This document shows, piece after piece, positions 2,676 through 47,633 of a stretch of 64,000 bases of DNA (position 1 is the first letter of the stretch; the number at the start of each line of letters is the position of its first letter). The notes under the pieces were generated by a model, which saw only the letters and a program-made list of their open reading frames with translations, was not told the DNA's origin and ran no database searches. Source of the stretch: Candidatus Omnitrophota bacterium (GTDB taxonomy: Bacteria; Omnitrophota; Gorgyraeia; Gygaellales; Profunditerraquicolaceae); assembly GCA_028717245.1 (NCBI GenBank), contig JAQUOD010000001.1, positions 149,514 through 213,513 on the forward strand. The letters are read 5' to 3'. Both the position numbers and the translations under genes were made by a program.

Positions 2676-2721
2676 CCCCGTTAGATAACTTTATTTTAAT
2701 ATAGCGGCTTATCTAACGGGG
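2676..2721 (-). terminator. Perfect 13-bp inverted repeat (CCCCGTTAGATAA / TTATCTAACGGGG) with a 20-nt loop. It spans the stop codon of the upstream CDS and abuts the pgk -35 element. It is a possible weak intrinsic terminator or insulator hairpin.
   Basis: The arms lie at 2676-2688 and 2709-2721 and are exactly complementary. The following tract is only moderately U-rich, so terminator strength is uncertain. Confidence 0.35.
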
Positions 2722-8068: not shown

Positions 8069-8127
8069 ACTTTAAGCTTTAAAATCAGTGCGTTATACTT
8101 TTTGTCTATTATTATAACATAAAAGCC

Positions 8128-13707: not shown

Positions 13708-15084
13708 TTAATCCAAGTCGTTAAAACCCCGCCAACTCGCCTTAAGAAAATAAAGCGTATCTTTAAAAAGCTTCATTTTCGACTTGCCGGCAATCCTGGC
13801 TTTATAATGAATAGGCATTTCGATGATTTTCATTTTCAACTTAGAAGCTCCGAATAGTAGATCAAAATCGCCCCACTTGCACCGGCCCATTTTAATATAC
13901 GGTATATAGCTTCTAAGAAGCGACTTTGTCCCGCAGAGTACGTCGGTATTTCTCTGCCCAATCATAATACTTAAAATAATACCGAATATTTTGTTTCCAA
14001 TAAATCTCAAAAAACTCATCGCGCCTTCTTCAATTGGATACACCATGCGGGTACCGTTTATAAACTCGGCCCTGCCTCTTGTGATTGGTTCAATAAATCT
14101 GTGTAGCTCGACCGGAGATACGGACATATCCGCATCTAATATAATTATCACATCCCCGCCACATTCTTTAAATCCTCTTTCTAAGGCAATCCCTTTTCCT
14201 TGATTAGGCTTATAGGATAATAGTTTTATCGTGTGGCCCGACGACCTTTTTAGCTGCTCCACTACTTTGGCTGTGCCATCGGTTGAACCATCATCGACAA
14301 CAATAATTTCGGTATTCGGCACTAACCGAGGAATCGACTCTATACACTCTTTAATATTTTCGACTTCATTAAAACAAGGCACCACAATAGAACAGGAAAG
14401 ATCTTTATACGCAATTTTCGGCTTTGCAACAATAAATTGTAAACTACACAAATTATTAATCCCGGGGACGCGGCTGAATATTTTATTCGCAAGATAAGAA
14501 AAAAAAGGGATATAAAAAGGCAATAACAACCTATAACCCGCTTCAATTATATCATAATCCAAAAGATTAAGCATATTTATGACATCGCGGTTAGTAACGA
14601 AATTCCTGATTTTATCGCTTTCTTTTAACCGCAGAATCTCTAAGAGCTTTATTATCGGTTGCCAAAGCGGATTTACCGTCGTAATGATTATTTTTGAATC
14701 TGGCTTAAGATAAAGCTTAAGGGTAGAAAATAAGTCAATTATATCATCGGAATAATCTAATAAGTTAGACAGAACTATATAGTCAAATTTATCGCAGCCC
14801 CTTAGTCCGGAAATGTCTGCCACTTGAAACATTAACTCGGCATGCTTTTCTTTAGCTAAACAGATCATCTCTTCGCTTATATCAATGCCAAACCCCCTGG
14901 TTGGCATAAGGGCACTCAACAAATCTCCGGTTGCGCAGCCTATTTCTAATATACCTTTGCCTTGCGGGATGATGGATGAATAAAATCTCTGAATCGTCCT
15001 ATGATAATAGGCATACCGTTTTCTGTGCTTATCATAGGAAGGCGCTATTTTATTAAAATATTCTTTAACAATTAATTTATTCAT
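13708..15084 (-). CDS. Bifunctional N-terminal class I SAM methyltransferase and C-terminal GT2 polyprenyl-phosphate glycosyltransferase (DPM1/ArnC-like)
   Basis: The N-terminal half has ILEIGCATGDL (SAM motif I). The C-terminal half has IVVPCFNEVENI...VVDDGSTDGT...ILDADMS, the GT-A DXD pattern typical of Dpm1/ArnC. Confidence 0.75.
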   Translation of the reverse strand: MNKLIVKEYFNKIAPSYDKHRKRYAYYHRTIQRFYSSIIPQGKGILEIGCATGDLLSALMPTRGFGIDISEEMICLAKEKHAELMFQVADISGLRGCDKFDYIVLSNLLDYSDDIIDLFSTLKLYLKPDSKIIITTVNPLWQPIIKLLEILRLKESDKIRNFVTNRDVINMLNLLDYDIIEAGYRLLLPFYIPFFSYLANKIFSRVPGINNLCSLQFIVAKPKIAYKDLSCSIVVPCFNEVENIKECIESIPRLVPNTEIIVVDDGSTDGTAKVVEQLKRSSGHTIKLLSYKPNQGKGIALERGFKECGGDVIIILDADMSVSPVELHRFIEPITRGRAEFINGTRMVYPIEEGAMSFLRFIGNKIFGIILSIMIGQRNTDVLCGTKSLLRSYIPYIKMGRCKWGDFDLLFGASKLKMKIIEMPIHYKARIAGKSKMKLFKDTLYFLKASWRGFNDLD

Positions 15085-15725
15085 GCCTCATTCCTAAATT
15101 TACCTACAAAGTATAATGCGTTATCTAACCCGAAGATTTTAGGGTACAAAATCGAACGTTCTAACGCTAATTTCTTTTTCGCATTCGTCAATATCTCCTT
15201 GTGCCCCGAAGGGTGTATCTCTTTATCATCATAACCCAATATCGCAAATAATGCTTTGCTTAGTTTATTTCGAATCGGAAAACCAATGATAGCACTACTG
15301 CCTTTTTTGAGAACGCGGCTAATTTCATTAACTGCCAGCTCTAAATCCTTTATATGTTCCAAAACGCTCTGGCAGACTACAAGATTAAAGGCCTTATCTT
15401 TAAATGGCATATTACGTATATCCCCAAAAAATAATTGAATATTTTTTACCCCGCACTCTTTCATTACCAGCCCAACTTTATCCACGTCATTATGTATATC
15501 AATACCGTACAGCATAGAACATCTGCCTGCCAAAGTAGGCAAAAGAGCCCCCGGGCCAAATCCAATTTCCAGGATATTATCGTATTTATTGTCTAAAAGG
15601 CCTCTTACCATTTCAAACCTATGCCTGTAAAATAGGCCGATTAAAGGATGATACAGATACTCAGTAAAATCGTTTAATTCCTTAGTCCTAAACTGTATCC
15701 TTTTTATTGCCGCGGGTAAATTCAT
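15081..15725 (-). CDS. Class I SAM-dependent methyltransferase
   Basis: The motif ILEIGFGPGAL is a SAM-binding glycine-rich motif I. The length is 214 aa. Confidence 0.7.
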   Translation of the reverse strand: MNLPAAIKRIQFRTKELNDFTEYLYHPLIGLFYRHRFEMVRGLLDNKYDNILEIGFGPGALLPTLAGRCSMLYGIDIHNDVDKVGLVMKECGVKNIQLFFGDIRNMPFKDKAFNLVVCQSVLEHIKDLELAVNEISRVLKKGSSAIIGFPIRNKLSKALFAILGYDDKEIHPSGHKEILTNAKKKLALERSILYPKIFGLDNALYFVGKFRNEA

Positions 15726-15773: not shown

Positions 15774-16463
15774 TTATATCTTCTCTAACACCACGGTAGC
15801 CTTAAAGGCGCTTATATATTTCAAGAAAGCAAATTTATCTTCAATGCTTAAAAACAAATTAAGCAGTATACGGGGAATCATGCTGGGATAATTAAAACCG
15901 CCTGATAACGGATACACTAAAAAATCATGGATTTCTTGTCTTAAGATAGAAAACTCATTCGCGAATAAATCATTTTGTTTACGATTTTTAAAAAATATTC
16001 CTGTTACCATTCCATTTTGTTGTATATTTTCAAAATGAAATAGCCTTAAAACCAAATAGGAAATAATAGAAATATACATATCGATAATAATTACTCTGCC
16101 CCCCTGTTTTAGAATCCTCGATGCCTCTTTAAAAAAAACAGTCAAATCCTTTAAGTGGTGAAAAACGTCAATACACACAAGGTTAACAAAGGAATGGTCT
16201 CTGAATGGAAAAATAAGATTCGCATCAAACACTAAATCAACCCCCCTTACACCTATGATATCACTCGTAACGCAAGATGGAAAAAAGCGCTTAAAATCTC
16301 CGAATCCGCTTCCGATTTCCAGCGTTTTTCCTCCGGCATTAAGATTTTTCGCGATTTGCTTATACCACCTGTAATACACAAGCTGCAATACCTTTTTTTT
16401 CTCAAAAATTAACCTGCGTTGCCCGATATCTTTTTCGTCTATCTTAATAATCATTGAAAGCAA
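15774..16463 (-). CDS. Class I SAM-dependent methyltransferase
   Basis: The motif TLEIGSGFGDF is motif I. The length is 229 aa. Confidence 0.65.
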   Translation of the reverse strand: MLSMIIKIDEKDIGQRRLIFEKKKVLQLVYYRWYKQIAKNLNAGGKTLEIGSGFGDFKRFFPSCVTSDIIGVRGVDLVFDANLIFPFRDHSFVNLVCIDVFHHLKDLTVFFKEASRILKQGGRVIIIDMYISIISYLVLRLFHFENIQQNGMVTGIFFKNRKQNDLFANEFSILRQEIHDFLVYPLSGGFNYPSMIPRILLNLFLSIEDKFAFLKYISAFKATVVLEKI

Positions 16464-17713
16464 GCCCGTTTTTTAAAGTAAGTTCGAAGTTTTAGAAAAA
16501 CTGAGGCGATCCCAAAAGAAGCCAAAATGAGAATTAACGCTTCTACGCTCCAGCGATGCCTGCCTTCGGCGTAATAAAAACTTTGCAATATAGAAAGCGC
16601 AAATAAAAAAAATACTAATAATAGGACGAATTTTCTAAGAGGATATTTTATAAAAGCGAGCCAAAACCCGATTGAGGCAAAAATTATCATGATTGTATAA
16701 TACGCTTTATATAACCCTAGCCACCTGGATGGATACAGGATCCCGCTTTGTGGGGAAAACCACCAGAAATAGAATATCTTTTTTGAAGTTAGAATTAAAA
16801 ATTTTAAAGGATTTTCTTTGATAAAACCGATTGCGGTATCTTTAAATAAATCCATTTGCCCCATCTCATCAAGCGTATATAGCTTTTGTTTAAATTCCGC
16901 CGGGCTGGTTTCAAAAACTGCAGTTCCGTTAGGTAAATATAACGTTCCGGTGGCATGGGGATTGTTGCCAATCCAAAGGCCTTCCCACTGGTTAGTCTGA
17001 ATCAAAAAAAATTGCTTATACCTTAATAAATTTCTGATGGACCAAGGCAACAAGAATATTGCAACGATGCACACCGAATACAGCATTATCTTAAGGGTTT
17101 CCTTTCTGTTTTGTTGATAGTAATAAAACCATAGGAATATTACGGGAAGAAAGGCAAGAAGCGTAGGGCGTTCTAAAGCTCCTAACCCCAAACATACGCC
17201 CAATATAATTTTATTTTTTAAGGACGCCCTATTGTAATTCTTTATTACCATCCACACTATGGCGCTTATTAATAAGGCATACAGGCTAAGCGAATGTACC
17301 TTAAGGGTAGAATAGACTATCAACCCGGGATGCAATGCTACTAATAGCATTGAGAGCAACCCAACCTTTTTATCAAAAATAGTCTTGCCGATACAAAAAA
17401 TAATGTAGCACATTAAGACATTAAAGATTATCTGGAGCCAAATGATATATGCAATTTCGTGACCAAACAATAGGTATACTAACGCACAAAGGTAGGGAAA
17501 AAGCGGGGCAATGGCTGAATAGTGCGGCGCATTATACCGGGGCAAAAGAAAACCTTTACCCTGAATCAGGTTGGTTGCGATTTCTTCATATTCGTAGACT
17601 TCAATAGAATGATGATGCGCCCCCCAGATAAAGACTACGGCCCTGACTAATGTCGCAATGAATAGAATGCTGACTATTAGCACAAAAACCCGGTTTATTT
17701 TGATGCGGGCCAT
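16451..17713 (-). CDS. GT-C fold membrane glycosyltransferase (ArnT/PMT-like, GT39/GT83-type)
   Basis: The protein has more than 10 hydrophobic segments, short loops and an extended first loop, which fits ArnT/PMT_2 topology. I place the start at the internal ATG (17713) to avoid a 32-nt overlap with the upstream gene. It pairs with the ArnC-like GT2 at 13708-15084. Confidence 0.5.
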   Translation of the reverse strand: MARIKINRVFVLIVSILFIATLVRAVVFIWGAHHHSIEVYEYEEIATNLIQGKGFLLPRYNAPHYSAIAPLFPYLCALVYLLFGHEIAYIIWLQIIFNVLMCYIIFCIGKTIFDKKVGLLSMLLVALHPGLIVYSTLKVHSLSLYALLISAIVWMVIKNYNRASLKNKIILGVCLGLGALERPTLLAFLPVIFLWFYYYQQNRKETLKIMLYSVCIVAIFLLPWSIRNLLRYKQFFLIQTNQWEGLWIGNNPHATGTLYLPNGTAVFETSPAEFKQKLYTLDEMGQMDLFKDTAIGFIKENPLKFLILTSKKIFYFWWFSPQSGILYPSRWLGLYKAYYTIMIIFASIGFWLAFIKYPLRKFVLLLVFFLFALSILQSFYYAEGRHRWSVEALILILASFGIASVFLKLRTYFKKRACFQ

Positions 17714-17717
17714 CGTA

Positions 17718-19586
17718 TTAGAGACCTCCTTTCCACCAATAATACGCAATCGCTAAATACTCGTGGATTATGCCTTTTATTTGTTTTAAGTCTATCCTCT
17801 TCGATATTTTCTTTGCCGGGCTAATGTCATGGCTATAGAAGCGGCTCTTAATCGGAGTATAAATAACGGTTATGCCGGGGGCATTTTTTCTAATTACTAA
17901 AGCGGCTCTACGCATATGGTAAGGAGAACTAATCAATAATACTTTTTTCCAGTTTCTTTTTAACAGGATCTCTTCTACAAACTTAATATTTTCATAGGTG
18001 TTCGCTGAGTTTTCCTCTAAAACGATGGCCTCATTAGGCACGCCTAAACTTATAGCCAAAGATTTCATTAGCTGGGCCTCCTTAAACACATACCCGTATC
18101 CTGTAGAGAATATTAAATGGCCGGCGTAGCCTTCATTGTACAATTTTACTGCATAGTCAACCCTTTCTTCATAACCCTGCCCTGCCTTGCCGGATTCGCC
18201 CACCCCTCCCCCCAAAACAACAATCGCATCTGCCTTTTGAGGCTTATTTACTATTTTAAGCGGTTCGGCCAAATACCAAATAACAGGTGTATAAAATATT
18301 AACAACCATAGGGCAAGAAAAATAAATGCGGACCCAAGAAACCTTCTTCTTGCTGTCCTGTAAATACGTTTGAATATTTCCTGCCAATCGGAATAACCGG
18401 TTATTTCTTTTTTTCTGATAGCGCCTTCTATTAAATTGCTCATCTCTTCGATACGTTTATCCCAGCTATGCCCTTTCGCTAACCTTATCCTCTCGCTAAT
18501 CAAATTACTATCCCTCTCTTCCAAGGCATTATTGATTTTCTTTATGAATTCTTCCTTTGTCCTGGCAATTAACACGAGATTCCCGTTTTCTCGGTTGAAA
18601 GCCATGATTTCCGGTATGTCGGTAGAAACTACCGGTTTGCCAAAAGCGTGGTATTCATTTAACTTTGTGGGATAAACGGTATTAGTATATTCGCTTTTTA
18701 AATAGGGTATAATACAGACGTCGAACTCTTTAATATAACCGGGTAACAGATGGAAATCTTTCTGCCCCAAGAAAATGATATTCGGTATTCCCCTTAAAGA
18801 TGATACGTCTGTCTGTATGGGCCCTACTAAAACGAAAGACCAATCAGGGTTAGCCTTTGCTACATACATCAACAAATTAAAATTTATATGGCGATGTATG
18901 CCTCCGATATAACCGATTATCGGTTTTTTTATATTCTTTATATCTACATAATTATATCCCGCCGGTAATTCTTTTTCGCTGTTAAATATATTTATATTTA
19001 CGCCGAATGGAAAAACATAAACATTATTATTAAGGCTCCTGCATTTTTCTGCCAAAACAGGCCCCTGGACAAATACCAAATCACACATTTTGATCAACTC
19101 ATCTTCGGTTTTCTTTAAATTTTTAGGATTGTTTACTAATTTATAAAAGTCTGCTATGCAGTAATATACTAATAACTTCTTCTCTATACTATTTATAATA
19201 TCTAAGGCTATCCCCGTAGGCAGGAATGTCCATATAATAGGGGCGTGAAAATCTACTATATCCTTCCATTTTTTTAGCGGCTTAAGCAGCAGATGTTTAT
19301 TAATCCATCGCGCAAACAAAGAATATTGGAAAGGCAAGATAACCGGTGAAAATATATACAGATTTTCCATCTCATTCCTGAAACCCCTGGTACCCTTAAA
19401 CCAATTAATAATTCTTTTCCGTAAACGGGGGATATCCCTGAATTTGGGGCTTCTTACTCCTGTGTTTTCTATAAAGAGCACCTTATTACCGTTTTTAGTA
19501 AAAATAGACATTATTTCTTGATGACCTTGCCAGACAAAATCCCAATCTATGCTTGATATACAAATAATATTATGGTTTTTTAACAT
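17718..19586 (-). CDS. Fusion protein with an N-terminal GT4-like glycosyltransferase and a C-terminal DUF218 (YdcF/ElyC/SanA-like) domain
   Basis: The GT-B C-terminal motif is FGKPVVSTDIPEI. A transmembrane segment follows. The DUF218 core is ADAIVVLGGG...HLIFSTGYG...NTYEN...SSPYHMRRA. The length is 622 aa. Confidence 0.65.
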   Translation of the reverse strand: MLKNHNIICISSIDWDFVWQGHQEIMSIFTKNGNKVLFIENTGVRSPKFRDIPRLRKRIINWFKGTRGFRNEMENLYIFSPVILPFQYSLFARWINKHLLLKPLKKWKDIVDFHAPIIWTFLPTGIALDIINSIEKKLLVYYCIADFYKLVNNPKNLKKTEDELIKMCDLVFVQGPVLAEKCRSLNNNVYVFPFGVNINIFNSEKELPAGYNYVDIKNIKKPIIGYIGGIHRHINFNLLMYVAKANPDWSFVLVGPIQTDVSSLRGIPNIIFLGQKDFHLLPGYIKEFDVCIIPYLKSEYTNTVYPTKLNEYHAFGKPVVSTDIPEIMAFNRENGNLVLIARTKEEFIKKINNALEERDSNLISERIRLAKGHSWDKRIEEMSNLIEGAIRKKEITGYSDWQEIFKRIYRTARRRFLGSAFIFLALWLLIFYTPVIWYLAEPLKIVNKPQKADAIVVLGGGVGESGKAGQGYEERVDYAVKLYNEGYAGHLIFSTGYGYVFKEAQLMKSLAISLGVPNEAIVLEENSANTYENIKFVEEILLKRNWKKVLLISSPYHMRRAALVIRKNAPGITVIYTPIKSRFYSHDISPAKKISKRIDLKQIKGIIHEYLAIAYYWWKGGL

Positions 19587-21896
19587 TTATTCACCTTGCT
19601 TATAACCCCAGGCTACCCAACCCGCCGTAGCTTTAATCTTCGTTATTTGGATATTATAAAAATTAAATTCATCAAATATCCTATATAGCTCATCGCGGCT
19701 GAATCTGTGCTCTACCGGAGCGGAAAATCTATCGTAAATATCTCCCCTCAAAGAGAATAAGGAACGGCCGAAATTGAAGGGTATTTTTTCATAGAGCGTA
19801 TAAGTAATCCTGTATCTTTTAAAAAATCTAGCCGGATAGGAGAATATTATCACAAATACGGGGGATATCAAGCAGGAAAAAAGATAAAGTATACGCGGCG
19901 GAATCTTAAGGGTAAACTTGCGAATAATATTGATTAACTTAATGCCAAGGTATTTTATTAGATTTTGCGCATGGTCCTCATATAGATAGAGAAAACACGG
20001 GCTGCCTTTTTTCAATACCCTGCCTATTTCTAAAAAGGCCTTTTTATAATCAGGTATATGGTGCAGGACGCCAAAAGAATAAACAAAGTCGCAAACCCCG
20101 TTTCTTAAAGGAATGTCTACTGCGGACCCTTTTATAATATTAACGTTATTCAGCTTACGGCTAAGCTTCGCGGCAACGTAAACGCCATCACTGATATCCA
20201 TGCCAATAACATGCAACATAGGATTATTTTTGGCCATAGCGAATGCATCCCATCCGCATCCGCAACCAATTTCTAACCCGCATGAGCCTCTGGTTATTTT
20301 TTCCGGTATCGTTTCTTGCATGAAATCCAGATGGTATTTTTTTGGGGGCGGCATATTATCACAGGTTGACCATAAGAAACCATACCTGAAACCGGTGTCC
20401 TTGGTAATAACGCGGCTATCCTTTTTTGATTTTAGTTTATTTTGTAACTGTAATTTATACTTTATGAAATATTTGGGGTCATATATCAATTTCAGTAATA
20501 TTTTGTAAAACACCTTAAACGGATGTCTAATTAAATATCGCATCTGGATCATTAATCTCTGGCGCATGACAAGAGAATATAGTCCATCTGTAGAAAAATT
20601 TTCAGTTGAAAAACTTGGATAGTCTGCCTTAAGGTCTTTATAGTTAAATTCACTGGGAATTAATTTTTTCTCTTTGCATAATTCCAGTAACCGCGTCCCT
20701 GGCAAGGGGGTAGCAAAAAAGAAGTTAACATTATCTGCCTGGAGTTTTTTCGCAAGTTTAAAAGTATTATTAAGGTGTTCGCGCGTTTCTCCCGGTAACC
20801 CCACTACAAAAAAAACCGCTGTTTCTATCTTTAATTTCTCTGCCTTATTTATTATGGGCTTTACCTGAGAAAGCATCAGGGGTTTTTTGATTATATTTTT
20901 TAAAACATGCTCATCTCCGGATTCGATTCCGATGCTTATCCTATAACAACCGCTCTGCTTCATCAGTTCCAGCATTCCATCGTCTAACGTCTGAAGAGCC
21001 ACCCCGTTGGGTACGCTCCATAAGAGATTAAATCCCTGCCTTATCATTTCTTTAAATATGGATTCTGCCCGATTTTTATCGAGAGTGAGGTTGTCATCTT
21101 CAAAGAGAAGCTCTTTAACGCCGAATTTATGGAAAAGATAGCTTATTTCCGACACTACCTGTCCTGCCGACCTTTTTCTATAATTCCTTCCCCATAGGTT
21201 ATGGATAGAACAGAATATACATTCAAAGGGGCACCCACGAGAGGTAATCATGGGTAGAAAAGGTGTTTTTTTTGCCGGGCTGCCATGGGGATTGTTAATC
21301 CTGAAATATTCCTCTAAGGGGAATATTTCCCAGTAAGGAAACGGTAGGCTGTCTAGATTTTCCAGATAATTTATTCTTGGGTTAATCTTTACGGAATCGT
21401 TATACCTAAAGCCAATCCCTTCTATATCCCGGATAGACCTTTTATTCTGAAGATGCTCCAAGAGTACTTTCAGGGTTATCTCGCCTTCTCCGATAACTAT
21501 AAAATCTACATTTTCATCCCTTAGGACATCTGCGGGAACCGCAGAGCAGTGCGCCCCGCCTAAAATGGTCACAATCCTTTTATCTATTTCCTTAACTATT
21601 TTACATATCGCATGGACATTCTCTGATTGAGATGAAAATAAACAGGATATGCCCACGGCATCCGGAGAAAAGTCTTTTACTCTTTTACCGATATCTTCAA
21701 AGGATAATCCGTATCTTAAGCATTCCATATCCACGCTGGCTTCTTTCTCGTAACCTTCGGCTAATGCATCTAAAACCGCAACTTGATAAGCATCTTTTAA
21801 TACAGCAGCTAGATATGCAAGGCCAAGAGGCGGATGACATTTCTTGGCCTCAGTTTTAAAAATAGTAAAAGGCGGCTGAATTAATAATATTTTCAT
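19587..21896 (-). CDS. Fusion of a B12-binding radical SAM domain and a class I SAM methyltransferase with a C-terminal membrane segment (B12-rSAM paralog 2 of 6)
   Basis: The sequence has an N-terminal B12-like domain and the radical SAM motif GCPFECIFC. The class I motif GLEIGCGCGWDAF lies around aa 540. A hydrophobic helix sits near the C-terminus. The length is 769 aa. Confidence 0.8.
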   Translation of the reverse strand: MKILLIQPPFTIFKTEAKKCHPPLGLAYLAAVLKDAYQVAVLDALAEGYEKEASVDMECLRYGLSFEDIGKRVKDFSPDAVGISCLFSSQSENVHAICKIVKEIDKRIVTILGGAHCSAVPADVLRDENVDFIVIGEGEITLKVLLEHLQNKRSIRDIEGIGFRYNDSVKINPRINYLENLDSLPFPYWEIFPLEEYFRINNPHGSPAKKTPFLPMITSRGCPFECIFCSIHNLWGRNYRKRSAGQVVSEISYLFHKFGVKELLFEDDNLTLDKNRAESIFKEMIRQGFNLLWSVPNGVALQTLDDGMLELMKQSGCYRISIGIESGDEHVLKNIIKKPLMLSQVKPIINKAEKLKIETAVFFVVGLPGETREHLNNTFKLAKKLQADNVNFFFATPLPGTRLLELCKEKKLIPSEFNYKDLKADYPSFSTENFSTDGLYSLVMRQRLMIQMRYLIRHPFKVFYKILLKLIYDPKYFIKYKLQLQNKLKSKKDSRVITKDTGFRYGFLWSTCDNMPPPKKYHLDFMQETIPEKITRGSCGLEIGCGCGWDAFAMAKNNPMLHVIGMDISDGVYVAAKLSRKLNNVNIIKGSAVDIPLRNGVCDFVYSFGVLHHIPDYKKAFLEIGRVLKKGSPCFLYLYEDHAQNLIKYLGIKLINIIRKFTLKIPPRILYLFSCLISPVFVIIFSYPARFFKRYRITYTLYEKIPFNFGRSLFSLRGDIYDRFSAPVEHRFSRDELYRIFDEFNFYNIQITKIKATAGWVAWGYKQGE

Positions 21897-22816
21897 TATC
21901 TATACATAATACGTAATTTAAGTAATGCGGCTAAATACCCGATTACTGCTTTATAATTAAAAGGATATTCGCATATCGACTTCTTATACCATTCTTTACT
22001 TTCTTCAAAATTATTTTTATGATGGAATGCCCTTCCGGCAGCACACATAACCGAAGACCTGCGTTTTCTTATCCTCTCCAGAAGGTCTTTATCTTGATGG
22101 CCGAATTTGGAAAAATGCGAATCTAAAAGAGAAAGCATATTTAAGGCATTTACTTCTGTACTCCGTAAAAAAGCACCTGTTTCCGTCACCCTATAGTACC
22201 CCAATACATCGAGTATAAAATAGAACCGGAATCTCATAGCTAATCTCAACCAGTACTCGTAGTCTTCGATCGTAAAAAGATTCTTTTCTTCGCAAAACCT
22301 GAGGGCATCATCAAAAAAAATACTTCTGCGAATAACTACTGCGGAGGTATGCAAACAGTTACCGTCCAGTAAAAGCTTTTTGTACATCTGGTCTACATGC
22401 GGGCCGTAAGATGTGTATCTTAGGATTTTATTACCGTGTATTATAGCCTCATTATGACAAACTAAACCTACCTGCGGCATATCGTTTAATATCTGCCTGC
22501 ATTTATCCAGTTTATCCTTATGCCAAAAATCATCCCCGTCCAAAAGGGCTATATATCTGCCCTTAGATAGTGAAATTCCTTTATTCCTTGCGCATGCGGG
22601 CAGGCCGCTATTTTCCTGATAAAAATATTTAACCCTGCTATCGGGAAAGGATAATACGATTTCGTGAATATTATCGGTAGAACCGTCATCAAGCACTATT
22701 ATTTCAAAATCTTGATATGTCTGCTGTAAAACAGACTCTATGGCCATAGCGATGTATTTAGCATGATTGTATGCTACGATCACAACGCTAAATTCCGGAG
22801 TTTCTTTAGTTGCCAT
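21896..22816 (-). CDS. Glycosyltransferase family 2 (GT-A)
   Basis: The motifs FSVVIVAYNHAKYI...IIVLDDGSTD and LDGDDFW are present. The length is 306 aa. Confidence 0.8.
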   Translation of the reverse strand: MATKETPEFSVVIVAYNHAKYIAMAIESVLQQTYQDFEIIVLDDGSTDNIHEIVLSFPDSRVKYFYQENSGLPACARNKGISLSKGRYIALLDGDDFWHKDKLDKCRQILNDMPQVGLVCHNEAIIHGNKILRYTSYGPHVDQMYKKLLLDGNCLHTSAVVIRRSIFFDDALRFCEEKNLFTIEDYEYWLRLAMRFRFYFILDVLGYYRVTETGAFLRSTEVNALNMLSLLDSHFSKFGHQDKDLLERIRKRRSSVMCAAGRAFHHKNNFEESKEWYKKSICEYPFNYKAVIGYLAALLKLRIMYR

Positions 22817-23708
22817 CTCTTCTTAAACCCTTCATCCTGATAAGTCCATCCCTTAATCCTAAAGGAATAAATCCTAATTCTTTTTCTAATTTCAAAGTCA
22901 GATATGATGTGTTTTTGGGCCTGGGCGCTATATGGGGAAAAAAACTGCTATCTACCGGCCTGATTAAGTCTTTATCCAGGCCAAAAATATCTGCAATAAT
23001 TATCGCGTATTCGTAACGGTTGACTATATCTTTGCCTGCGATATGATAAATGCCATGCTTATCTTTATCTATAAGGGACAGGATAACGTCAGCGCAATGG
23101 TATGCCGAGAGAGGGTTCTCATACACATCATTTACCATATTCACCCTTTCTTTTTTATTCAGTTTGTCCAGAAGGAAAGTAACTAAATTTTTTCTCTCAT
23201 TAGGATTATTCCAGCCATACATCAATATCGGACGGACTATTATGTATTTATTAAAAGTTTCTCTTATTCTCTTCTCGCACTCTAATTTTATTCTCCCATA
23301 ATTATTTATAGGGTTAGGCTCATCTTCTTCTCTATAAGGGGCGTTTTCTCCGTCAAAGACTGCGTTGGTTGATACATATAATAACCGTGCACCAGTCTCT
23401 TTACATAATTCTATGATATTTTGAGTCCCGATAACATTAGAGCGATATGCCTCTTCGTAATGCTGCTGGCAAAAATCGACATCAGCTATGCCGGTAGTAT
23501 GAATAACAACTTCTATATTATTATTTTCATTAAATATTTTCTGCATAGCGTTTTTATCTTGAATATCAGAACAATAATACTTTAGATTTTTAGTGTTTGC
23601 CATCTTATATTTCCCCAGGTATATACCTGTTATATTATGAGAAAATACATTCATTTCTACGAGTGATTTACCTAATAAACCAGTTACGCCAGTTATTAAA
23701 ATATTCAT
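22806..23708 (-). CDS. SDR-family NAD(P)-dependent sugar reductase/epimerase (RmlD-like)
   Basis: The N-terminal motif ILITGVTGLLG is a Rossmann motif. The length is 300 aa, which is RmlD-sized. Confidence 0.6.
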   Translation of the reverse strand: MNILITGVTGLLGKSLVEMNVFSHNITGIYLGKYKMANTKNLKYYCSDIQDKNAMQKIFNENNNIEVVIHTTGIADVDFCQQHYEEAYRSNVIGTQNIIELCKETGARLLYVSTNAVFDGENAPYREEDEPNPINNYGRIKLECEKRIRETFNKYIIVRPILMYGWNNPNERKNLVTFLLDKLNKKERVNMVNDVYENPLSAYHCADVILSLIDKDKHGIYHIAGKDIVNRYEYAIIIADIFGLDKDLIRPVDSSFFPHIAPRPKNTSYLTLKLEKELGFIPLGLRDGLIRMKGLRRDGN

Positions 23709-25516
23709 TTTAAAAGAGATAACCAGGCCTCTTCCCTGGTTGGTTCAGTAATAATATCGCCTGCCGGAAACGAAATATCCCCGTTGAAATTTATCAAATC
23801 TAAGTCAATCTCTTGTTTCTCCGTTATTTTATACGGCTTAAGACCCAGATCTTCAAGAATATCCAAATCTATCAATTCAGTATCTATTTTATAAACAGGT
23901 ATCCCTTTATTTAAAGCTTCTAAGGCTGCGGTTGTTGAGGAGTAAACGACCACATCAATCTCTTTTAAAATTTCATCTAACGGGCTCAAATTAACTATTG
24001 CTGCCTTAGCCGCCTTTCTTATCGCCTTTCTTAATTTATTATTGAATAATTCTGGGCGGGGTTTAACATATAACTTAAAGCTATGATTTTTTGAAACCAC
24101 ATTTCCCAAGTAATAAATAAGTTCCAGGCTGCGGGAAAGAGGTACCTGTAAGATAAATAATACGTTCTTTTCTGATTGATTTCCTCTCTTGACAAAACCG
24201 TCTTTTTCCGTTTTCTTTGCATATCTAATTGAGCCGCCGTTTATTATTTTTGTTTCCTCAAAACCCGCCGAATTCAAAACCTTTTCATAATGGGAACTAT
24301 TTGTGATTATGTAGTCTGGACAGGGAGTAAATTTATATTCTTGCGGGCTTAAGAAATGGTTTATTTCCATTGAAGATAATGTTGAATGCTGGTAACCCGC
24401 GCTTACAATACTATGATTAGCATTCTGAATAGCCAGAAGAATCATTTTCTCCCAAGGCTGGTTCTCAAAGGGATAGGTAACAAGTTTAAGCTGCTTATTC
24501 TCGTTAAAATAATTTTTGTAAGCGTAATATAAACACAGCCTGACCCAAAAAGAAGTCGAAGCTGATTCCTGGAGATATTCTCTAAAGAATAATGTGCTGT
24601 AGTCAGTACTTTGTAAAATTTGCGCCCTTTTATCAGATGGCATAATGGGATGTGTGAAAATTGTTCTCAGCCAATCCCCTATCTTTAAATAAAAATTAGG
24701 CAAAAAATAATTTCCTTTCACCTTCAAGATTATATTTTCAAGAAGACCGGAAAAGTCAATCTGTGAGCCCATTATTACTTTATGACCTTTTTTTTCATAA
24801 ATATCCCCGATAAGCGCAAGTTTATAAATATCCCTGAAGGCGCCTTCTTTAAAAGAGCGCTTATCAAAAAAAGTAAATACCATTACTTCAGCAGCAGAAT
24901 CATTTATTGATTTAAGCCTTTTAAAGAATTTTATTTTCAGATATCCTTCAAACAAAAAAAGAATAATTTTACGCCACAAGAATAAAGCAGTAGCTAACCT
25001 GGCTTTTATCCGATAATAGATAATTGAAACTAACATCCTAAGACAGACCCCTTTTATAAGAACAGAATTTATCCCTGTTTTATGGACTCCTGTTTCCAAA
25101 AGCCGATGCAAATAGGGATCTTCAATTATCACCAATAATGGAATTGTACGTAAAGATTTATCAAGCGCCCAACCTTGTATCAGGTTAAAATAGCAGAACA
25201 AAAGAAAGAAATCGGTTTGAAACGGAGATTTAGAAGCGAGCCTCGCTGCCCACCAGCGCAAATCATCCTTATATTGCAGATTAATCTTAGCAATCCAATC
25301 TAAAAAAGGTTCCTTTAAATCACGCGATAATTTATATAATTCTTTGGCGTAGCAGTACCTTTTGGTTCTAGAAAATAGAGTTTCAATCTTCTGTTTGCGT
25401 TCAATGTCAATCCCAAAATAACACCATCTCCATTCAGCTCCAATGGGAAAATCTCTTGCGTAATTTATAATCTGCCCTGCAGAACCTATTACTATTTTTT
25501 TTGATGTATCATACAT
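23705..25516 (-). CDS. Orphan 603-aa protein with a TagB/TagF-like GT-B C-terminal donor-binding motif. It is a putative transferase for a CMP/CDP-activated donor.
   Basis: The C-terminal segment IDVVVYSSTTAALEALNKGIPVYKI resembles the D-x-[LI]-[IV]-T-D-Y-S-S...KP-[IV] signature of CDP-glycerol glycerophosphotransferases. It is paralogous in pattern to 53979-55856 and 55860-57695. Confidence 0.4.
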   Translation of the reverse strand: MYDTSKKIVIGSAGQIINYARDFPIGAEWRWCYFGIDIERKQKIETLFSRTKRYCYAKELYKLSRDLKEPFLDWIAKINLQYKDDLRWWAARLASKSPFQTDFFLLFCYFNLIQGWALDKSLRTIPLLVIIEDPYLHRLLETGVHKTGINSVLIKGVCLRMLVSIIYYRIKARLATALFLWRKIILFLFEGYLKIKFFKRLKSINDSAAEVMVFTFFDKRSFKEGAFRDIYKLALIGDIYEKKGHKVIMGSQIDFSGLLENIILKVKGNYFLPNFYLKIGDWLRTIFTHPIMPSDKRAQILQSTDYSTLFFREYLQESASTSFWVRLCLYYAYKNYFNENKQLKLVTYPFENQPWEKMILLAIQNANHSIVSAGYQHSTLSSMEINHFLSPQEYKFTPCPDYIITNSSHYEKVLNSAGFEETKIINGGSIRYAKKTEKDGFVKRGNQSEKNVLFILQVPLSRSLELIYYLGNVVSKNHSFKLYVKPRPELFNNKLRKAIRKAAKAAIVNLSPLDEILKEIDVVVYSSTTAALEALNKGIPVYKIDTELIDLDILEDLGLKPYKITEKQEIDLDLINFNGDISFPAGDIITEPTREEAWLSLLK

Positions 25517-25531: not shown

Positions 25532-26248
25532 TTATTTTTTTAAGTATTTTTTAATCCACTCTTCTGTTTTTTTAAAATCCTCTTCCTTATGGACATCACA
25601 ACATTCATCTATAATAAACGGTTTTATATTGTTACCCATAAAAGCCCAGGGCTGCTGGCCGTTTTTTGAAAATATTGTTTTTTTTACATTTAGTACCCAG
25701 AAATTATGACAGAGAAAATATGACGGTTCCAACTCTTGCCTGTTTGTAGATATCGTTTTATTCTTAAAATCAAAAAAAGGCTCCAAAAATCCCTTCTTAT
25801 TAATCCTTTTCGCCCTAAAAGGATGGCGATCTAAATCTAAACAAACAGGAACAACTGCAGAAACCGATTTATTTGTTAAGATTTCTTTAATACAAATATC
25901 TATCCATTCTGTCTTTATCACTGCGGAATTTGCCAAGAGCACAATTAAGATGTCCGGTTTAAGTTTATCTAGCCTTTCTATTTCTCTCAAGGCATGCCTT
26001 ATGGCTTCAACGTGTTTTGAATTGGGCCTCGCCAGATATTCCGGCCTTAATATTTTTTTATATCCTATCCTACCCACAATTTCCAAAATCTTCTCGCTGT
26101 CACTACTGGCATAAAAATAGGAAATATATTTTGAGCGCCTGGCTGCTCTAGCGGGATAGCTAACCAAAGGTTTATTAAAAAGGGGTAGAATATTTTTATC
26201 TGCCAAGGTACTGCTGGCTTTTCCTGTTAATAATGCTGTTATTTTCAT
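25532..26248 (-). CDS. Divergent cytidylyltransferase (CMP-ulosonate synthetase family, NeuA/KdsB-like)
   Basis: The N-terminus is ITALLTGKASSTLADKNILPLFNKPLVSY, which aligns with the IxARxxSxRxPxKNxxxxxGxPLI pattern of acylneuraminate cytidylyltransferases but is divergent. The length is 238 aa. Confidence 0.5.
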   Translation of the reverse strand: MKITALLTGKASSTLADKNILPLFNKPLVSYPARAARRSKYISYFYASSDSEKILEIVGRIGYKKILRPEYLARPNSKHVEAIRHALREIERLDKLKPDILIVLLANSAVIKTEWIDICIKEILTNKSVSAVVPVCLDLDRHPFRAKRINKKGFLEPFFDFKNKTISTNRQELEPSYFLCHNFWVLNVKKTIFSKNGQQPWAFMGNNIKPFIIDECCDVHKEEDFKKTEEWIKKYLKK

Positions 26249-26268
26249 CGCGGTCTCCTGATAAAACG

Positions 26269-26937
26269 CTAAATTTGGAGCTCCTTTTTAAAGAATAGAG
26301 AAATTAAGTCGCTGGCTATAGTCAGGTCTGTGATGTCTTTAATCTCCATAGAAGCCAGCATATCGATTTCGTATAAATACGGCCTTATGCCGAAGTAGTT
26401 TTTATATTTTATATATATATCCTTTCTGGCTATGAAACAACCGTTAGTAATTTTATAAACCGGTTTAAGAGAATTTCTGTTTACAACCTTAGTCATCTCG
26501 AAATTAAGGGCCTGGTTTTTAAAAATAATGTATTCCTGTAACCTGGAAACCGAAATGAGGCTGTCGTATCCTGAACCCAATTTTAAGAATTTCTTCAGCA
26601 TATTATTAAAATCAATTACGCTGACAAAAGGCGAAGTCACATGCGTCCAGATAATAATTTCTTTATCTATTTCCTTTACGCATTCGATAATAGCTTTTGA
26701 CATATCGATTTTATGCCTTTTGATTATATTAACACCATAGGCTTTAGCTATTTTCGCAATCTTAGACGAAGGGGTAGAGATAAAAATATTTTCTCCCCTG
26801 ATAAGGTTTTTCACCTGAGCAATCTTCCATTCCAATAAAGTTAAATCACCGAACCTGACTAAATCGCCGTCTTCGCTATACCTGTTTTTTTCTAAAGCCG
26901 GGATAACTACTGCTGCATTTTTATACATTTTAATCAC
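26269..26937 (-). CDS. Divergent cytidylyltransferase (CMP-ulosonate synthetase family-like)
   Basis: The sequence has AAVVIPALEKNRY...GDLTLLEWKI and an IIWTHVTSPF (QxTSP-like) motif. The length is 222 aa. Confidence 0.5.
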   Translation of the reverse strand: MIKMYKNAAVVIPALEKNRYSEDGDLVRFGDLTLLEWKIAQVKNLIRGENIFISTPSSKIAKIAKAYGVNIIKRHKIDMSKAIIECVKEIDKEIIIWTHVTSPFVSVIDFNNMLKKFLKLGSGYDSLISVSRLQEYIIFKNQALNFEMTKVVNRNSLKPVYKITNGCFIARKDIYIKYKNYFGIRPYLYEIDMLASMEIKDITDLTIASDLISLFFKKELQI

Positions 26938-27701
26938 AATCTCCTTTCCAACTGCGTAAGCCTGGCTATTTCTGCTTCTATAAACAGATCATTTATCTCT
27001 TTTTTCGAGAGTATATATAACTCTTCAAATTTTAAGGCCGCCCTTAAGGCATTGGGATTATTCAGTATTATCTGCGCGGGTAAAATTACTTTTCTCGTTT
27101 CGATCTTATCGAATAATCTAAGGATCTTCTTATGCTTCCTAAATATCTCCAGGCTCCTTGCGCTGATACCACCTCCGATGCATGCCTGTAAATTATAATG
27201 TTTGATCTTACGTCCGACATTTTCTAAAATATTAAGAATAAAATTAGTATCGGGATGAATATTTTCATCAAAATAAGACTCGCTTAAATCAGTCCGGCCT
27301 ATCGTAATACCGTCAATCTTATCCTTTGCGTATCCCAATATCTCATCAATTTGGTTTACGGCGCTTTTTGTTTCTATATTTAAAATTAGCTGCAGCTTTG
27401 TCTTTTTATAAATATTTTTAGATGCCTGGACAAATTTCCTGACCCCGAATTTGCTTTCTACCATAGGCGCGATCAAACCATCTACCCCGATATCCACTGA
27501 ATTTTTTATATCGGTTACCGCCTCCACTCCGCCGATTTTCAAGAATAATTTAACCCCTATCCTCGATGTCAATCTCCTTAACTTCACCGCATCCCTGAAT
27601 GAAGATCCTTCTGCTTCAAATTCCGCTTTAATTCCCTTAAGGCCGTATTGTTGTTTTAATTTTTCCAGCTGCTCAAATAATTTATTCTCCAGTCCGTACA
27701 T
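26934..27701 (-). CDS. HpcH/HpaI-family (class II, pyruvate-dependent) aldolase/lyase
   Basis: The motifs GVDGLIAPMVES, NIETKSAVNQIDEIL and DGITIGRTDLS match the conserved HpcH/HpaI/CitE blocks. The length is 255 aa. Confidence 0.65.
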   Translation of the reverse strand: MYGLENKLFEQLEKLKQQYGLKGIKAEFEAEGSSFRDAVKLRRLTSRIGVKLFLKIGGVEAVTDIKNSVDIGVDGLIAPMVESKFGVRKFVQASKNIYKKTKLQLILNIETKSAVNQIDEILGYAKDKIDGITIGRTDLSESYFDENIHPDTNFILNILENVGRKIKHYNLQACIGGGISARSLEIFRKHKKILRLFDKIETRKVILPAQIILNNPNALRAALKFEELYILSKKEINDLFIEAEIARLTQLERRL

Positions 27702-27702
27702 T

Positions 27703-28461
27703 TTAAGCTCCTAAGATTTTTTTTATTTTATAAATGGCTTCTTTTTCGCATTCCGAATTATTATCTGTTAACACGTATCCCCATCCAGCATGGATCCTTA
27801 CCAGACCCGTAATTCCGCCGCAAGAACATAAATGGTCTCTAGAGTCATCTATGATAAGGGACTTGCGCACCCGGTATTTATCTATTATAAATTTAACGAC
27901 CCCGCCCTTTGAATTGAACCTTTTGTAATATTTCCCGTCATATATATTATCGCTGGAAAAATTAACCTTATGGACTTTTAGCAGCTGTAAAACTGTATCC
28001 TTATCTTTTGTGGTGATAATAAAAAAAGGGGGCTTTGCCTCCTTAATTATTTCCGAAATCTTATATAAAAAATTATATGGGGTATTTAAAGAAAGCCAAA
28101 ATTTAGGGTATTTTACCCTGATATATCTTCTGGCTTTTAAAAAACGTTTTTCAAAAATCTGCTTTTCTAGAGAATCTATATTACAATGTAACCTAAAGTC
28201 CCGCGCAATATCAATGCTCCTATCTTCTGACTTTTTATCTATCGCTTTAAGTAAATCATAATAATCTGTGGCGCAATTGATAAGGAACCTGTATTTCTTG
28301 AAGATTTTAAAATGTTCGGATTCAAAGTTAATGCTACCGATAGAGCGTTTATTCGTAGTGGCAAGCGTACTTACGCAATAAGCCTCTTTTAGGGTATCGA
28401 AGAGTACTCCATCTAAGTCCAAAAAGATTGCCTTATCAATTACTTTGCTCTTATTTGCCAA
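27703..28461 (-). CDS. HAD-superfamily hydrolase (phosphatase-like)
   Basis: The N-terminal motif IFLDLDGVLFDT is HAD motif I (DxDGxL). The length is 252 aa. Confidence 0.6.
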   Translation of the reverse strand: MANKSKVIDKAIFLDLDGVLFDTLKEAYCVSTLATTNKRSIGSINFESEHFKIFKKYRFLINCATDYYDLLKAIDKKSEDRSIDIARDFRLHCNIDSLEKQIFEKRFLKARRYIRVKYPKFWLSLNTPYNFLYKISEIIKEAKPPFFIITTKDKDTVLQLLKVHKVNFSSDNIYDGKYYKRFNSKGGVVKFIIDKYRVRKSLIIDDSRDHLCSCGGITGLVRIHAGWGYVLTDNNSECEKEAIYKIKKILGA

Positions 28462-30484: not shown

Positions 30485-30516
30485 TTTATTTATATCTATT
30501 CATCATATAAAAAATT

Positions 30517-46531: not shown

Positions 46532-46545
46532 TTGCCTAAAATTTC

Positions 46546-47625: not shown

Positions 47626-47633
47626 CTCCTCTA

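Follow-up and report, generated by a model that had tools for sequence, protein, structure and literature searches.

The glycan locus examined in this study raises the question of why an uncultured member of the Omnitrophota should encode a cobalamin-type radical SAM (rSAM) enzyme and a class I SAM methyltransferase as one polypeptide, whether that polypeptide is a natural entity, and what it might do. The gene occupies positions 19587..21896 of the window (the whole stretch of 64,000 nucleotides that was analysed) on the minus strand, as do all features described below, and encodes 769 aa plus a stop codon, with an ATG start and no internal stops. An earlier interpretation made from the DNA letters alone (the sequence-only reading) had correctly reported an ORF of this length and position but had left its strand unstated.

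Domain architecture of the fusion protein

The N-terminal half carries a B12-binding Rossmann domain at aa 15–145 (21462..21854; PF02310, E 2e-23, 82.9 bits against a gathering score of 32.1), followed by a Radical SAM core at aa 216–381 (20754..21251; PF04055, E 4e-21, 76.5 bits) and a C-terminal part at aa 382–486 (20439..20753), which marks the end of the region common to unfused orthologues of approximately 490 aa and is accompanied by predicted helices at aa 436–489. Motif scanning located the [4Fe-4S] cluster motif CxxxCxxC as CPFECIFC at aa 222–229 (21210..21233), its cysteines C222, C226 and C229 being invariant in 18/18 fusions. No DxHxxG motif was found in the B12-binding domain, in which G113, G114, H116, S84, S88 and Q90 are invariant across the same 18 proteins.

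The C-terminal half, aa 505–769 (19590..20384), is a class I SAM methyltransferase with a helical insert. It matches Methyltransf_11 at aa 541–634 (E 3e-18, 66.9 bits against a gathering score of 21.2), all three Pfam matches lying well above their gathering scores, and displays the seven-stranded Rossmann-like fold. SAM-binding motif I (GLEIGCGCGWDAF, aa 540–552; 20241..20279), already singled out in the sequence-only reading, includes LEIGCGCG at aa 541–548, which fits (E/D)xGxGxG, and G544, G546, G548 and D550 are invariant. These domains and motifs substantiate the claim that a cobalamin-type radical SAM enzyme and a conventional class I methyltransferase share one polypeptide. The accompanying description of the protein as tri-partite had to be abandoned: B12-binding and radical SAM domains together constitute the standard class B unit, and the protein is therefore a bipartite fusion of two enzymes, not three.

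Assignment of the N-terminal half to class B is indicated by PF02310, by PF04055 together with CxxxCxxC, and by fold similarity. The structure model has a mean pLDDT of 75.6, a moderate quality, and drops under 50 at aa 217–237, the segment containing CxxxCxxC. Foldseek searches with it retrieved AprD4, TsrM, MgmA, CysS, TokK and OxsB with E-values between 1e-18 and 1e-13, and with only 16–20% identity to any solved structure. AprD4 illustrates that a B12-binding domain can occur without cobalamin use. The best NCBIfam match is NF038361 (Sden_1168 family ... P-methyltransferase) with 303.7 bits over model positions 64–474 of 560. Judged by this score the rSAM half is a relative of the family and not a member, the cutoff being 575 bits, and it falls below every curated family cutoff in NCBIfam. 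JGI names several of the homologues BchE. As an identity for the rSAM half, BchE (anaerobic Mg-protoporphyrin IX monomethyl ester cyclase) was rejected on the TIGR02026 score (176.4 against 481 bits) and on the glycan context, no pigment genes being present among the genes scanned in the window.

The membrane helix that the sequence-only reading had placed at the C-terminus proved not to be a transmembrane tail. The hydrophobic helix at aa 667–693 (19818..19898; Kyte-Doolittle 19-mer maximum of 2.22 at aa 669–687) is an insert inside the methyltransferase fold, located between the β-strand at aa 633–640 and the last two strands at aa 746–754 and 759–766, and it ends 76 residues from the C-terminus. 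The insert is a family property, being found also in standalone methyltransferase homologues, and no curated family covering it was found in Pfam or NCBIfam. Across 81 sequences, Ser678-Pro679 at the centre of the helix (19860-19865) is 100% conserved, charged residues amount to about 0% at aa 669–689 (at most 1% at any position), and K/R reaches about 80% at positions 664, 668, 690, 693, 694 and 696. AF2 predicts a continuous helix at aa 667–693. In PglC, a conserved central Ser-Pro (or BCAA-Pro) and basic residues that keep the flanks on the cytoplasmic side are two published determinants of a re-entrant helix (PMC6133551), and both counterparts, a charge-free segment with Ser-Pro and basic flanks, occur here. 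Since both helix flanks belong to one cytoplasmic domain, a single membrane pass is excluded, and a re-entrant or interfacial anchor would explain the sequence better than a helix that crosses the membrane.

Genetic context

The fusion gene is enclosed by the two neighbours that the sequence-only reading had named, a GT2 glycosyltransferase gene (306 aa; 21896..22816) immediately upstream and a gene for a GT4 - TM segment - DUF218 protein (622 aa; 17718..19586) as its conserved downstream partner. The GT2 stop overlaps the start of the fusion gene by 1 nt (TAATG), while the start codon of the GT4-DUF218 gene directly follows the stop of the fusion gene with a 0-nt gap (TAAATG). This partner has a TM-like segment at aa 417–440, matches TuaH (aa 156–384) and ElyC (aa 407–568, including the TM segment), and belongs to a tight, Omnitrophota-centred family of GT4-TM-DUF218 proteins. 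An orthologue lies directly 3′ of the rSAM gene in the related loci L001, L003–L008, L010 and L055, L002 being the exception among orthologous loci with readable downstream DNA, and 16 contigs, matched by length, are apparently common to the best-120 match lists of the fusion and of GT4-DUF218. Upstream, L004 has RmlD-like and GT2 genes in the same arrangement as the window.

The glycan locus of the window extends over more than 58 kb, and the gene context here and in the related loci supports a setting in glycan biosynthesis at the membrane. Omnitrophota glycan loci contain up to six B12-rSAM genes, six having been found in one locus; a literature search on B12-rSAM enzymes in polysaccharide loci or in Omnitrophota returned nothing specific. 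Asn-synthase-like genes recur, together with a carbamoyltransferase, in L001–L007; as a lead, this set may be placed beside the product of the MoeK5 pathway, a C-methylated, carboxamidated and carbamoylated lipid-linked uronic acid.

Distribution of fused and split forms

A further 17 full-length fusions (754–786 aa, 51–60% identity) are encoded on separate contigs, and in an alignment of the 18 fusions (A1) both halves and the insert are conserved, with a mean column identity of 71%. The fusion is thus genuine and recurs in uncultured Omnitrophota. The epithet "unusual" given to it previously is justified insofar as it is rare, yet it recurs, and a like fusion has arisen independently at least once (P0241, in locus L090), there with a methyltransferase of a different type. 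The fusion is absent among the best 80 loci listed from GTDB species representatives.

The junction was placed near aa 480–505. Split rSAM orthologues align to query residues 1 to 480–486 and standalone methyltransferases from aa 497–505 onward, to aa 767; the linker between the two enzymes, at about aa 487–504 (20385..20438), varies in length and sequence in A1, and pLDDT is below 50 over aa 479–515 of the model. In Omnitrophota relatives each half has its own gene and the two genes are neighbours, in either order: L005 and L006 have the order rSAM, 277-aa methyltransferase, GT4-DUF218, in L007 the methyltransferase gene precedes the rSAM gene, and the fused state is seen in the window, L003 and L004. 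On the rSAM tree, 6–9 changes between fused and unfused state were counted (NJ, 100 bootstrap trees, these being distance trees whose state counts depend on correct gene calls), which rules out a single fusion event. Loci L008, L010 and L055 have retained the genes for rSAM and GT4-DUF218 but lack this methyltransferase, indicating that the two activities are separable steps. As a natural split, P0019 was discarded (its methyltransferase part is frameshifted, with in-frame stops), and the upstream methyltransferases in L008 and L009 were likewise discarded as orthologues of the fused domain (no tblastn match at 1e-5).

Discussion

On balance, the protein is probably a bifunctional, membrane-tethered sugar-tailoring enzyme of an Omnitrophota surface-polysaccharide locus which originated through the fusion of two normally adjacent genes. 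The N-terminal 486 residues would act as a class B rSAM enzyme that employs a 5'-deoxyadenosyl radical and methylcobalamin to place a methyl group on an unactivated sugar carbon, while the C-terminal ~265 residues, as a class I methyltransferase, would add a second methyl by SN2 transfer to a heteroatom (presumably O or N) of the same sugar residue or of an adjacent one, so that one substrate would be methylated twice. The Ser-Pro helix may dip into the cytoplasmic leaflet and tether both activities at the membrane beside the GT4-TM-DUF218 glycosyltransferase, whose downstream gene is translationally coupled to that of the fusion and which presumably puts the target sugar on a lipid-linked intermediate; this intermediate, as opposed to a nucleotide sugar, would be the stage at which methylation occurs. 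More tentatively, and with distinctly less conviction, the fusion and GT4-TM-DUF218 might form a dedicated membrane-bound module which builds a doubly methylated sugar (C-methyl plus O- or N-methyl) on a polyprenyl-linked intermediate, its re-entrant anchor recruiting the substrate.

A sugar substrate is suggested by the extent of the glycan locus and by relatives of the rSAM half that are fused to sugar enzymes (a DegT sugar aminotransferase, an NTP_transferase, and GT2 plus methyltransferases), and membrane tethering by the properties of the helix together with the TM segment in the GT4-DUF218 partner. We favour methylase chemistry for the rSAM half because NF038361 outscores the NCBIfam models of BchE (176.4 bits), HpnJ (171 bits) and AprD4 (78 bits), and because a published network (PMC9204698) places SD1168 among the single-methylation enzymes Fom3, MoeK5 (the C-methylase of moenomycin biosynthesis), GenK and Fms7.

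The alternative with the strongest claim, which we nevertheless consider doubtful, is that the rSAM half transforms the sugar by a radical route other than methylation, leaving the class I domain as the sole methyl source. Candidates are the dehydration or deoxygenation known from AprD4, an epimerisation, a ring contraction of the OxsB or HpnJ kind, and the formation of a C-C bond. AprD4, a sugar 1,2-diol dehydratase, heads the Foldseek matches (E 1e-18) and ranks second among the PDB sequence matches, and the BchE and HpnJ models reach 176 and 171 bits. The SD_1168 family, however, is the closest by a wide margin (304 against 78 bits for the AprD4 model), the residues of the B12 domain are strongly conserved, and no conserved AprD3-like reductase partner accompanies the module in the related loci compared.

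It is improbable that the enzyme acts, instead of on a sugar, on a membrane lipid or on the polyprenyl carrier itself, to which the hydrophobic helix would give access. This idea draws on analogy with the B12-rSAM lipid methylases HpnP/HpnR and the GDGT methylases, but the gene is translationally coupled between two glycosyltransferase genes inside a glycan locus, its conserved partner is a GT4, the fusion partners of its relatives are sugar enzymes, and no lipid-synthesis genes occur nearby among the genes scanned.

Very unlikely, in our view, is an obligate two-component catalyst, for instance in cyclopropanation, or a class I domain that feeds the methyl cycle of the cobalamin. The repeated, independent fusion of B12-rSAM enzymes to class I methyltransferases would speak for such tight functional coupling, and the C10P/C10Q pair, in which C10P is HemN-like (class C), cyclopropanates by means of an rSAM enzyme and a methyltransferase-like partner. 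The present rSAM half is of the B12 type and not HemN-like, and L008, L010 and L055 do without the pairing, so that a C10P/C10Q-type cyclopropanase was rejected; since those loci lack this methyltransferase and the copy in L001 has decayed, the rSAM enzyme evidently works without it, and the methyltransferase itself shows the full set of conserved SAM motifs that is typical of an autonomous enzyme.

We give marginally less credence still to the idea that the rSAM half methylates phosphorus in a phosphonate or phosphinate group carried by the glycan. The label of its best NCBIfam match and the scoring of the PhpK family prompt this suggestion, against which stand a score far under the cutoff (304 against 575 bits) and the absence of PEP mutase: Pfam and NCBIfam gave no match to it among the scanned genes, and a six-frame search of the window for its motif EDKxxxxxNS was negative. 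SD1168 itself has only been proposed to perform C- or P-methylation (PMC9204698), and nothing on SD_1168 was found in the searchable literature.

Finally, that a sequencing, assembly or frameshift error has merged two genes is scarcely credible: the junction does sit where the separate genes of relatives end and begin, and the L001 contig carries the opposite lesion (frameshift and stops in the methyltransferase part), so errors or decay do occur, but the 17 independent uninterrupted homologues come from different samples and assemblers (NCBI, JGI, ENA and Logan), the linker is in frame in all aligned fusions, and a protein identical to the fusion (P0001, from a Candidatus Omnitrophica MAG) is encoded on 2 contigs. 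The missing stop near aa 480 that the sequence-only reading had raised as a sign of such an error is accordingly answered by these intact homologues, the split form being a natural alternative in relatives.

Nearly all that is known of class B rSAM enzymes comes from antibiotic, cofactor, pigment and lipid pathways, surface polysaccharides being essentially unexplored in this respect. The fusion is a useful functional clue rather than a new kind of system: it ties three uncharacterised groups, a B12-rSAM lineage, a methyltransferase family with a hydrophobic insert and the GT4-TM-DUF218 family, into one functional module, and with GT2 and GT4-DUF218 it defines a three-gene unit for expression. 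If our favoured proposal is correct, methyltransferases would join phosphoglycosyl transferases, by way of the Ser-Pro insert, as enzymes that use a re-entrant helix. Uncultured Omnitrophota, which are very small and possibly host-dependent, would then add radical-installed methyl groups to their surface glycans, at a notable cofactor cost where six B12-rSAM genes reside in one locus, with a bearing on glycan chemistry, on phage and host recognition, and on cobalamin dependence in groundwater communities. Should the more tentative reading of a dedicated module hold, no cobalamin-dependent radical SAM enzyme would have been shown before to serve the assembly of a bacterial surface polysaccharide, and no class I methyltransferase to be monotopic; that reading would also account for the presence of up to six B12-rSAM genes per glycan locus and would imply extensively C-alkylated and chemically unprecedented surface glycans.

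Relation to known systems

The rSAM half has the layout of the class B methylases GenK/Fms7 (aminoglycosides), MoeK5 (moenomycin), Fom3 (cytidylyl-hydroxyethylphosphonate) and the orphan SD_1168 of Shewanella denitrificans, namely a B12-binding Rossmann domain and a TIM-barrel core with CxxxCxxC; its modelled fold appears to be that of solved class B enzymes, and a context of carbohydrate biosynthesis is common to both. Unlike those enzymes, it resides in a surface-polysaccharide locus and not in a natural-product cluster, it is fused to a class I methyltransferase and coupled to GT4-TM-DUF218, and its activity is a predicted one. The methyltransferase half differs from other small-molecule class I enzymes of the Methyltransf_11/25 type, among them the sugar O-methyltransferases RebM and AtmM (PDB 3bus and 6uv6), in an ~80-residue helical insert between β5 and β6, whose charge-free 21-residue Ser-Pro helix has no solved counterpart. 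The nearest parallel to this helix is offered by the monotopic phosphoglycosyl transferase PglC (PMC6133551), where a hydrophobic segment likewise bears a Ser-Pro at its centre and basic residues on its flanks, in an enzyme of lipid-linked glycan assembly as is proposed here; the likeness is one of sequence, the folds being unrelated, the segment internal here and N-terminal in PglC, and the AF2 helix continuous here. The partner gene resembles, through its matches to ElyC and TuaH, both the DUF218 envelope proteins ElyC/SanA/YdcF and TuaH-like GT4 enzymes, which are here fused in one 622-aa protein.

Architecture of the fusion gene

The minus-strand gene at 19587–21896 begins with ATG and encodes 769 residues with no internal stop. 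Its product carries B12-binding (aa 15–145, E 2e-23), Radical_SAM (aa 216–381, E 4e-21) and Methyltransf_11 (aa 541–634, E 3e-18) domains, all far over the Pfam gathering scores, with the cluster motif CPFECIFC at aa 222–229 and the methyltransferase motif GLEIGCGCGWDAF, already quoted in the sequence-only reading, at aa 540–552. That reading had proposed a tri-partite fusion; the uninterrupted ORF and the three domains are indeed present, but since B12-binding and radical SAM domains together constitute an ordinary class B radical SAM (rSAM) unit, two enzymes are joined rather than three. The neighbours are as it had named them, namely a GT4-DUF218 gene (17718–19586) and a GT2 gene (21896–22816). 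The GT2 stop overlaps the fusion start (TAATG), while the fusion stop adjoins the GT4-DUF218 start without a gap (TAAATG), which suggests that the fusion may be translationally coupled with both.

By sequence, both halves are assigned to well-known superfamilies, and neither reaches the cutoff of a curated equivalog family. Public annotation of the combination is either generic (“cobalamin-dependent protein”) or wrong (BchE-type cyclase, JGI), the latter label being ruled out by a score of 176 versus 481.

Conservation and recurrence of the fusion

The concern that two genes had been joined artefactually is ruled out by 17 further full-length fusions (754–786 aa, 51–60% identity), found on separate contigs of NCBI, JGI, ENA and Logan assemblies and conserved in both halves; a protein identical to the fusion is also recorded from a Candidatus Omnitrophica MAG. 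Mean column identity across the alignment of fusions is 71%, with both halves strongly conserved; this conservation extends to all three cysteines of the cluster motif, GG/H and S..S.Q in the B12 domain, motif I of the methyltransferase and the long C-terminal extension, and only a short stretch near columns 500–530 is variable. Given these homologues and a distant fusion, P0241, the architecture is not unique.

Unfused relatives of the rSAM half (approximately 490 aa) number in the hundreds, and more than 100 standalone relatives of the C-terminal ~270 residues (approximately 275 aa, 50–78% identity) derive mostly from Omnitrophota. Among homologous loci, L003 and L004 share the fused form with the window, L005 and L006 display the order rSAM, 277-aa methyltransferase, GT4-DUF218, and in L007 the methyltransferase gene precedes the rSAM gene. 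Split rSAM proteins align with fusion residues 1 to 480–486 and split methyltransferases with residues 497–505 through the end, placing the linker at approximately aa 487–504, in agreement with the low confidence of the AlphaFold model of the fusion at 479–515. The closest relative is locus L001 (70% identity in the rSAM half), whose rSAM protein, P0019, is the closest “unfused” match; the methyltransferase part downstream of it (7441–8302) is broken by one frameshift and two in-frame stops, the rSAM and GT4-DUF218 genes being intact. P0019 thus appears to be a decayed fusion, the breaks reflecting either domain decay or assembly errors.

Eight switches between the fused and unfused states were counted on a neighbour-joining tree of the rSAM half (range 6–9 over 100 bootstrap replicates), and locus L008 was verified to lack this methyltransferase though it falls inside the main fused clade. 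When 1.84 billion representatives were scanned exhaustively, the top 150 included this fusion as one 50%-identity cluster (P0004) and P0241 as one distant fusion (38% identity). The methyltransferase of P0241 is of a different, compact type without the hydrophobic insert, and its gene is one of six B12-rSAM genes in another glycan-type locus. Among the best 80 loci of GTDB species representatives, none was fused. These counts, the state switches and P0241 indicate that this fusion is rare but recurrent, and that fusion of a B12-rSAM enzyme with a class I methyltransferase arose more than once.

The GT4-DUF218 partner

A GT4-DUF218 orthologue (54–65% identity) lies directly 3′ of the rSAM or fusion gene in L001, L003–L008, L010, L055 and the window, L002 being an apparent exception; 16 of the best 120 partner matches lie on a contig equal in length to that of a best-120 rSAM match, the L002 contig included. 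No such gene was present beside distant rSAM relatives (at most 44% identity) in the examined loci of Planctomycetota, archaea and Thermodesulfobacteriota. The partner family (approximately 622 aa) is tight and Omnitrophota-centred, almost all members belonging to that phylum, with 56–70% identity and at least 120 clusters. The minus-strand window member combines a TuaH-like GT4 domain (aa 156–384) with an ElyC-like DUF218 domain (aa 453–612), and is predicted to be an integral membrane protein because of a strongly hydrophobic, TM-like segment between them (aa 417–440); this single segment would set the DUF218 domain across the membrane from the GT4 domain. As the methyltransferase is present in seven of the 11 orthologous loci examined (missing from L008, L010 and L055, decayed in L001), it appears to be a frequent but dispensable add-on to an rSAM and GT4-DUF218 core pair.

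On two Nitrospirae MAG contigs, a DUF218-only homologue (L087, 2402–2875; L088, 5707–6153; 32–35% identity to partner aa ~416–583) follows a distant rSAM relative (34% identity), which hints that the rSAM-DUF218 association may predate the GT4 fusion.

The glycan locus

Except for its low-coordinate end, where SecG, TIM, PGK and a spermine-synthase-like gene are located, the window is one minus-strand glycan locus extending from approximately 5.0 kb to beyond 64 kb. The boundary with the housekeeping genes PGK, TIM and SecG is marked by the spermine-synthase-like gene (2696–4960, minus), whose 754-aa product bears a spermine/spermidine-synthase domain only at aa 279–438, the other ~590 residues being without annotation. 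The locus encodes a Wzy_C protein, an initiating Glycos_transf_4 enzyme, many GT2, GT4 and GT-C proteins, an ABC exporter, two NeuB pathways, four CTP_transf_3 cytidylyltransferase-like proteins, RmlC- and RmlD-like proteins, a TylC3-like C-methyltransferase and six B12-rSAM proteins (8128–9615, 19587–21896, 30517–31965, 36824–38524, 47634–49022 and 57716–59098, all minus), the latter sharing 25–31% identity, each with its nearest. Such a density of cobalamin-type rSAM genes, also seen as four in 13 kb in L002 and six in 14 kb in L090, is striking for a polysaccharide locus.

The two NeuB-type nonulosonic-acid pathways (45830–53966 and 59095–63991, minus) have their NeuB genes at 50203–51207 and 63242–63991, the second clipped by the window end. 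Each includes DegT aminotransferases, epimerases/dehydratases, formyltransferase-like genes and CTP_transf_3 cytidylyltransferases, with an embedded B12-rSAM gene (47634–49022 and 57716–59098, respectively). The minus-strand block at 25532–31965 comprises two cytidylyltransferase-like genes, one weakly PseF-like and the other weakly KdsB-like, together with an HpcH/HpaI-type aldolase-like gene, a weak HAD-like ORF and genes for a HisC/CobD-like aminotransferase, an rSAM-SPASM protein (29507–30484) and a B12-rSAM protein. It contains no phosphonate genes, and its product may be an acidic sugar or side chain of an unusual kind, activated with CMP.

A second methyltransferase fusion (13708–15084, minus, 458 aa) links Methyltransf_23 (aa 21–181) to GT2 (aa 232–390), and is followed by standalone Methyltransf_11 genes (15081–15725 and 15774–16463, minus) and a PMT_2 GT-C gene (16451–17749, minus). 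The TylC3-like NDP-sugar C-methyltransferase, with Methyltransf_13/14 domains (42228–43469, minus), implies that the locus can also supply a C-methyl branched sugar by conventional chemistry, without radicals. Three minus-strand ORFs gave no Pfam match at E up to 0.01: 11871–12449 (192 aa) and the large adjoining pair 53979–55856 (625 aa) and 55860–57695 (611 aa). The sole match of ORF 23705–25516 (603 aa) was the Leptospira-type TIGR04326 ‘surface carbohydrate biosynthesis’ model, under its cutoff.

Asn-synthase-like amidotransferase genes recur beside the module in L001–L007 (for example L003 5391–7283, L005 5115–7001, and L006 5121–6830 and 13557–15443), and in L006 a carbamoyltransferase gene lies directly 5′ of the rSAM gene; the scanned window ORFs of at least 100 aa include no Asn-synthase-like gene. 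These genes have a parallel in moenomycin biosynthesis, in which MoeF5, MoeM5 and MoeK5 tailor a C-methylated uronamide unit.

A hydrophobic helix within the methyltransferase

The sole strongly hydrophobic stretch of the fusion is aa 669–687 (Kyte-Doolittle 2.22). Modelling of the methyltransferase domain from an alignment of 81 sequences (pLDDT 94.3, pTM 0.89) placed a helix at 667–693, in a helical insert between beta5 (633–640) and the last strands (746–754 and 759–766). As both flanks lie in one cytoplasmic Rossmann fold, the model topologically excludes a single transmembrane pass, and the C-terminal membrane helix originally proposed is instead predicted to be an insert within one methyltransferase fold. 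The segment is common to all 18 fusions and the standalone methyltransferases; across the 81 sequences charge is essentially never found at 669–689, Ser678-Pro679 is invariant, and Lys/Arg occupies positions 664, 668, 690, 693, 694 and 696 in approximately 80%.

Proposed chemistry

We infer the chemistry of the fusion from both halves. Phosphonate chemistry is unsupported, neither a PEP mutase domain nor the EDKxxxxxNS motif being found in the window. The best curated relative of the rSAM half is the SD_1168 family (304 bits, cutoff 575 not reached), other models giving 176 (BchE), 171 (HpnJ), 129 (PhpK) and 78 bits (AprD4); four other scanned window paralogues scored 91–134 bits on the SD_1168 model. 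SD1168 is grouped with the single-methylation enzymes Fom3, MoeK5, GenK and Fms7, and its physiological substrate is unknown (PMC9204698). Structurally, the half resembles AprD4, TsrM, MgmA, CysS, TokK and OxsB about equally. On the SD_1168 kinship, methyl transfer is its most likely chemistry. The methyltransferase domain has a complete SAM-binding motif set, and its conserved polar residues (e.g. Y637, Y639, E640, H642, D719, D722, R723, E729 and R731) would suit general-base catalysis directed at a hydroxyl or an amine.

Fusion partners seen in relatives of the rSAM half, namely a DegT sugar aminotransferase (P0254), a sugar-phosphate nucleotidyltransferase (P0325) and GT2 plus methyltransferase domains (P0275, 1879 aa), point to probable carbohydrate substrates; because of the fusions to nucleotide-sugar enzymes, the radical step may possibly act on a nucleotide sugar before transfer. 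Giant relatives (P0275; P0361, 2331 aa; P0362, 2279 aa; P0335, 1312 aa) look like entire glycan-tailoring assembly lines in single proteins: P0275 runs B12-rSAM, MT11, GT2, MT23, GT2, B12-rSAM, and P0361 and P0362 each have four stretches matching the fusion query.

The overall mechanism, to which we give slightly better than even credence, is that the rSAM half would use a 5′-deoxyadenosyl radical to abstract hydrogen and methylcobalamin as methyl donor to the resulting carbon radical, after which the class I domain would methylate a heteroatom on the same or a neighbouring residue, and the Ser-Pro helix would hold both catalytic units at the membrane. Fusing the two enzymes would improve co-localisation and stoichiometry, which may explain its repeated origin. 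That the halves form an obligate two-component catalyst of a single reaction is argued against by the loci without the methyltransferase, which show the radical and polar steps to be separable.

To our knowledge, all three co-occurring families (rSAM, methyltransferase and GT4-DUF218) lack a characterised member, and the fusion represents a Rosetta-stone link among them, as well as a pointer to heavy B12-rSAM use in Omnitrophota surface glycans. Also of value is the candidate re-entrant helix within a methyltransferase. The re-entrant helix of PglC, a monotopic glycan enzyme, has two experimental determinants, a central Ser-Pro and basic flanking residues (PMC6133551); by analogy the methyltransferase helix, which shares both features, is a candidate for the same membrane association.
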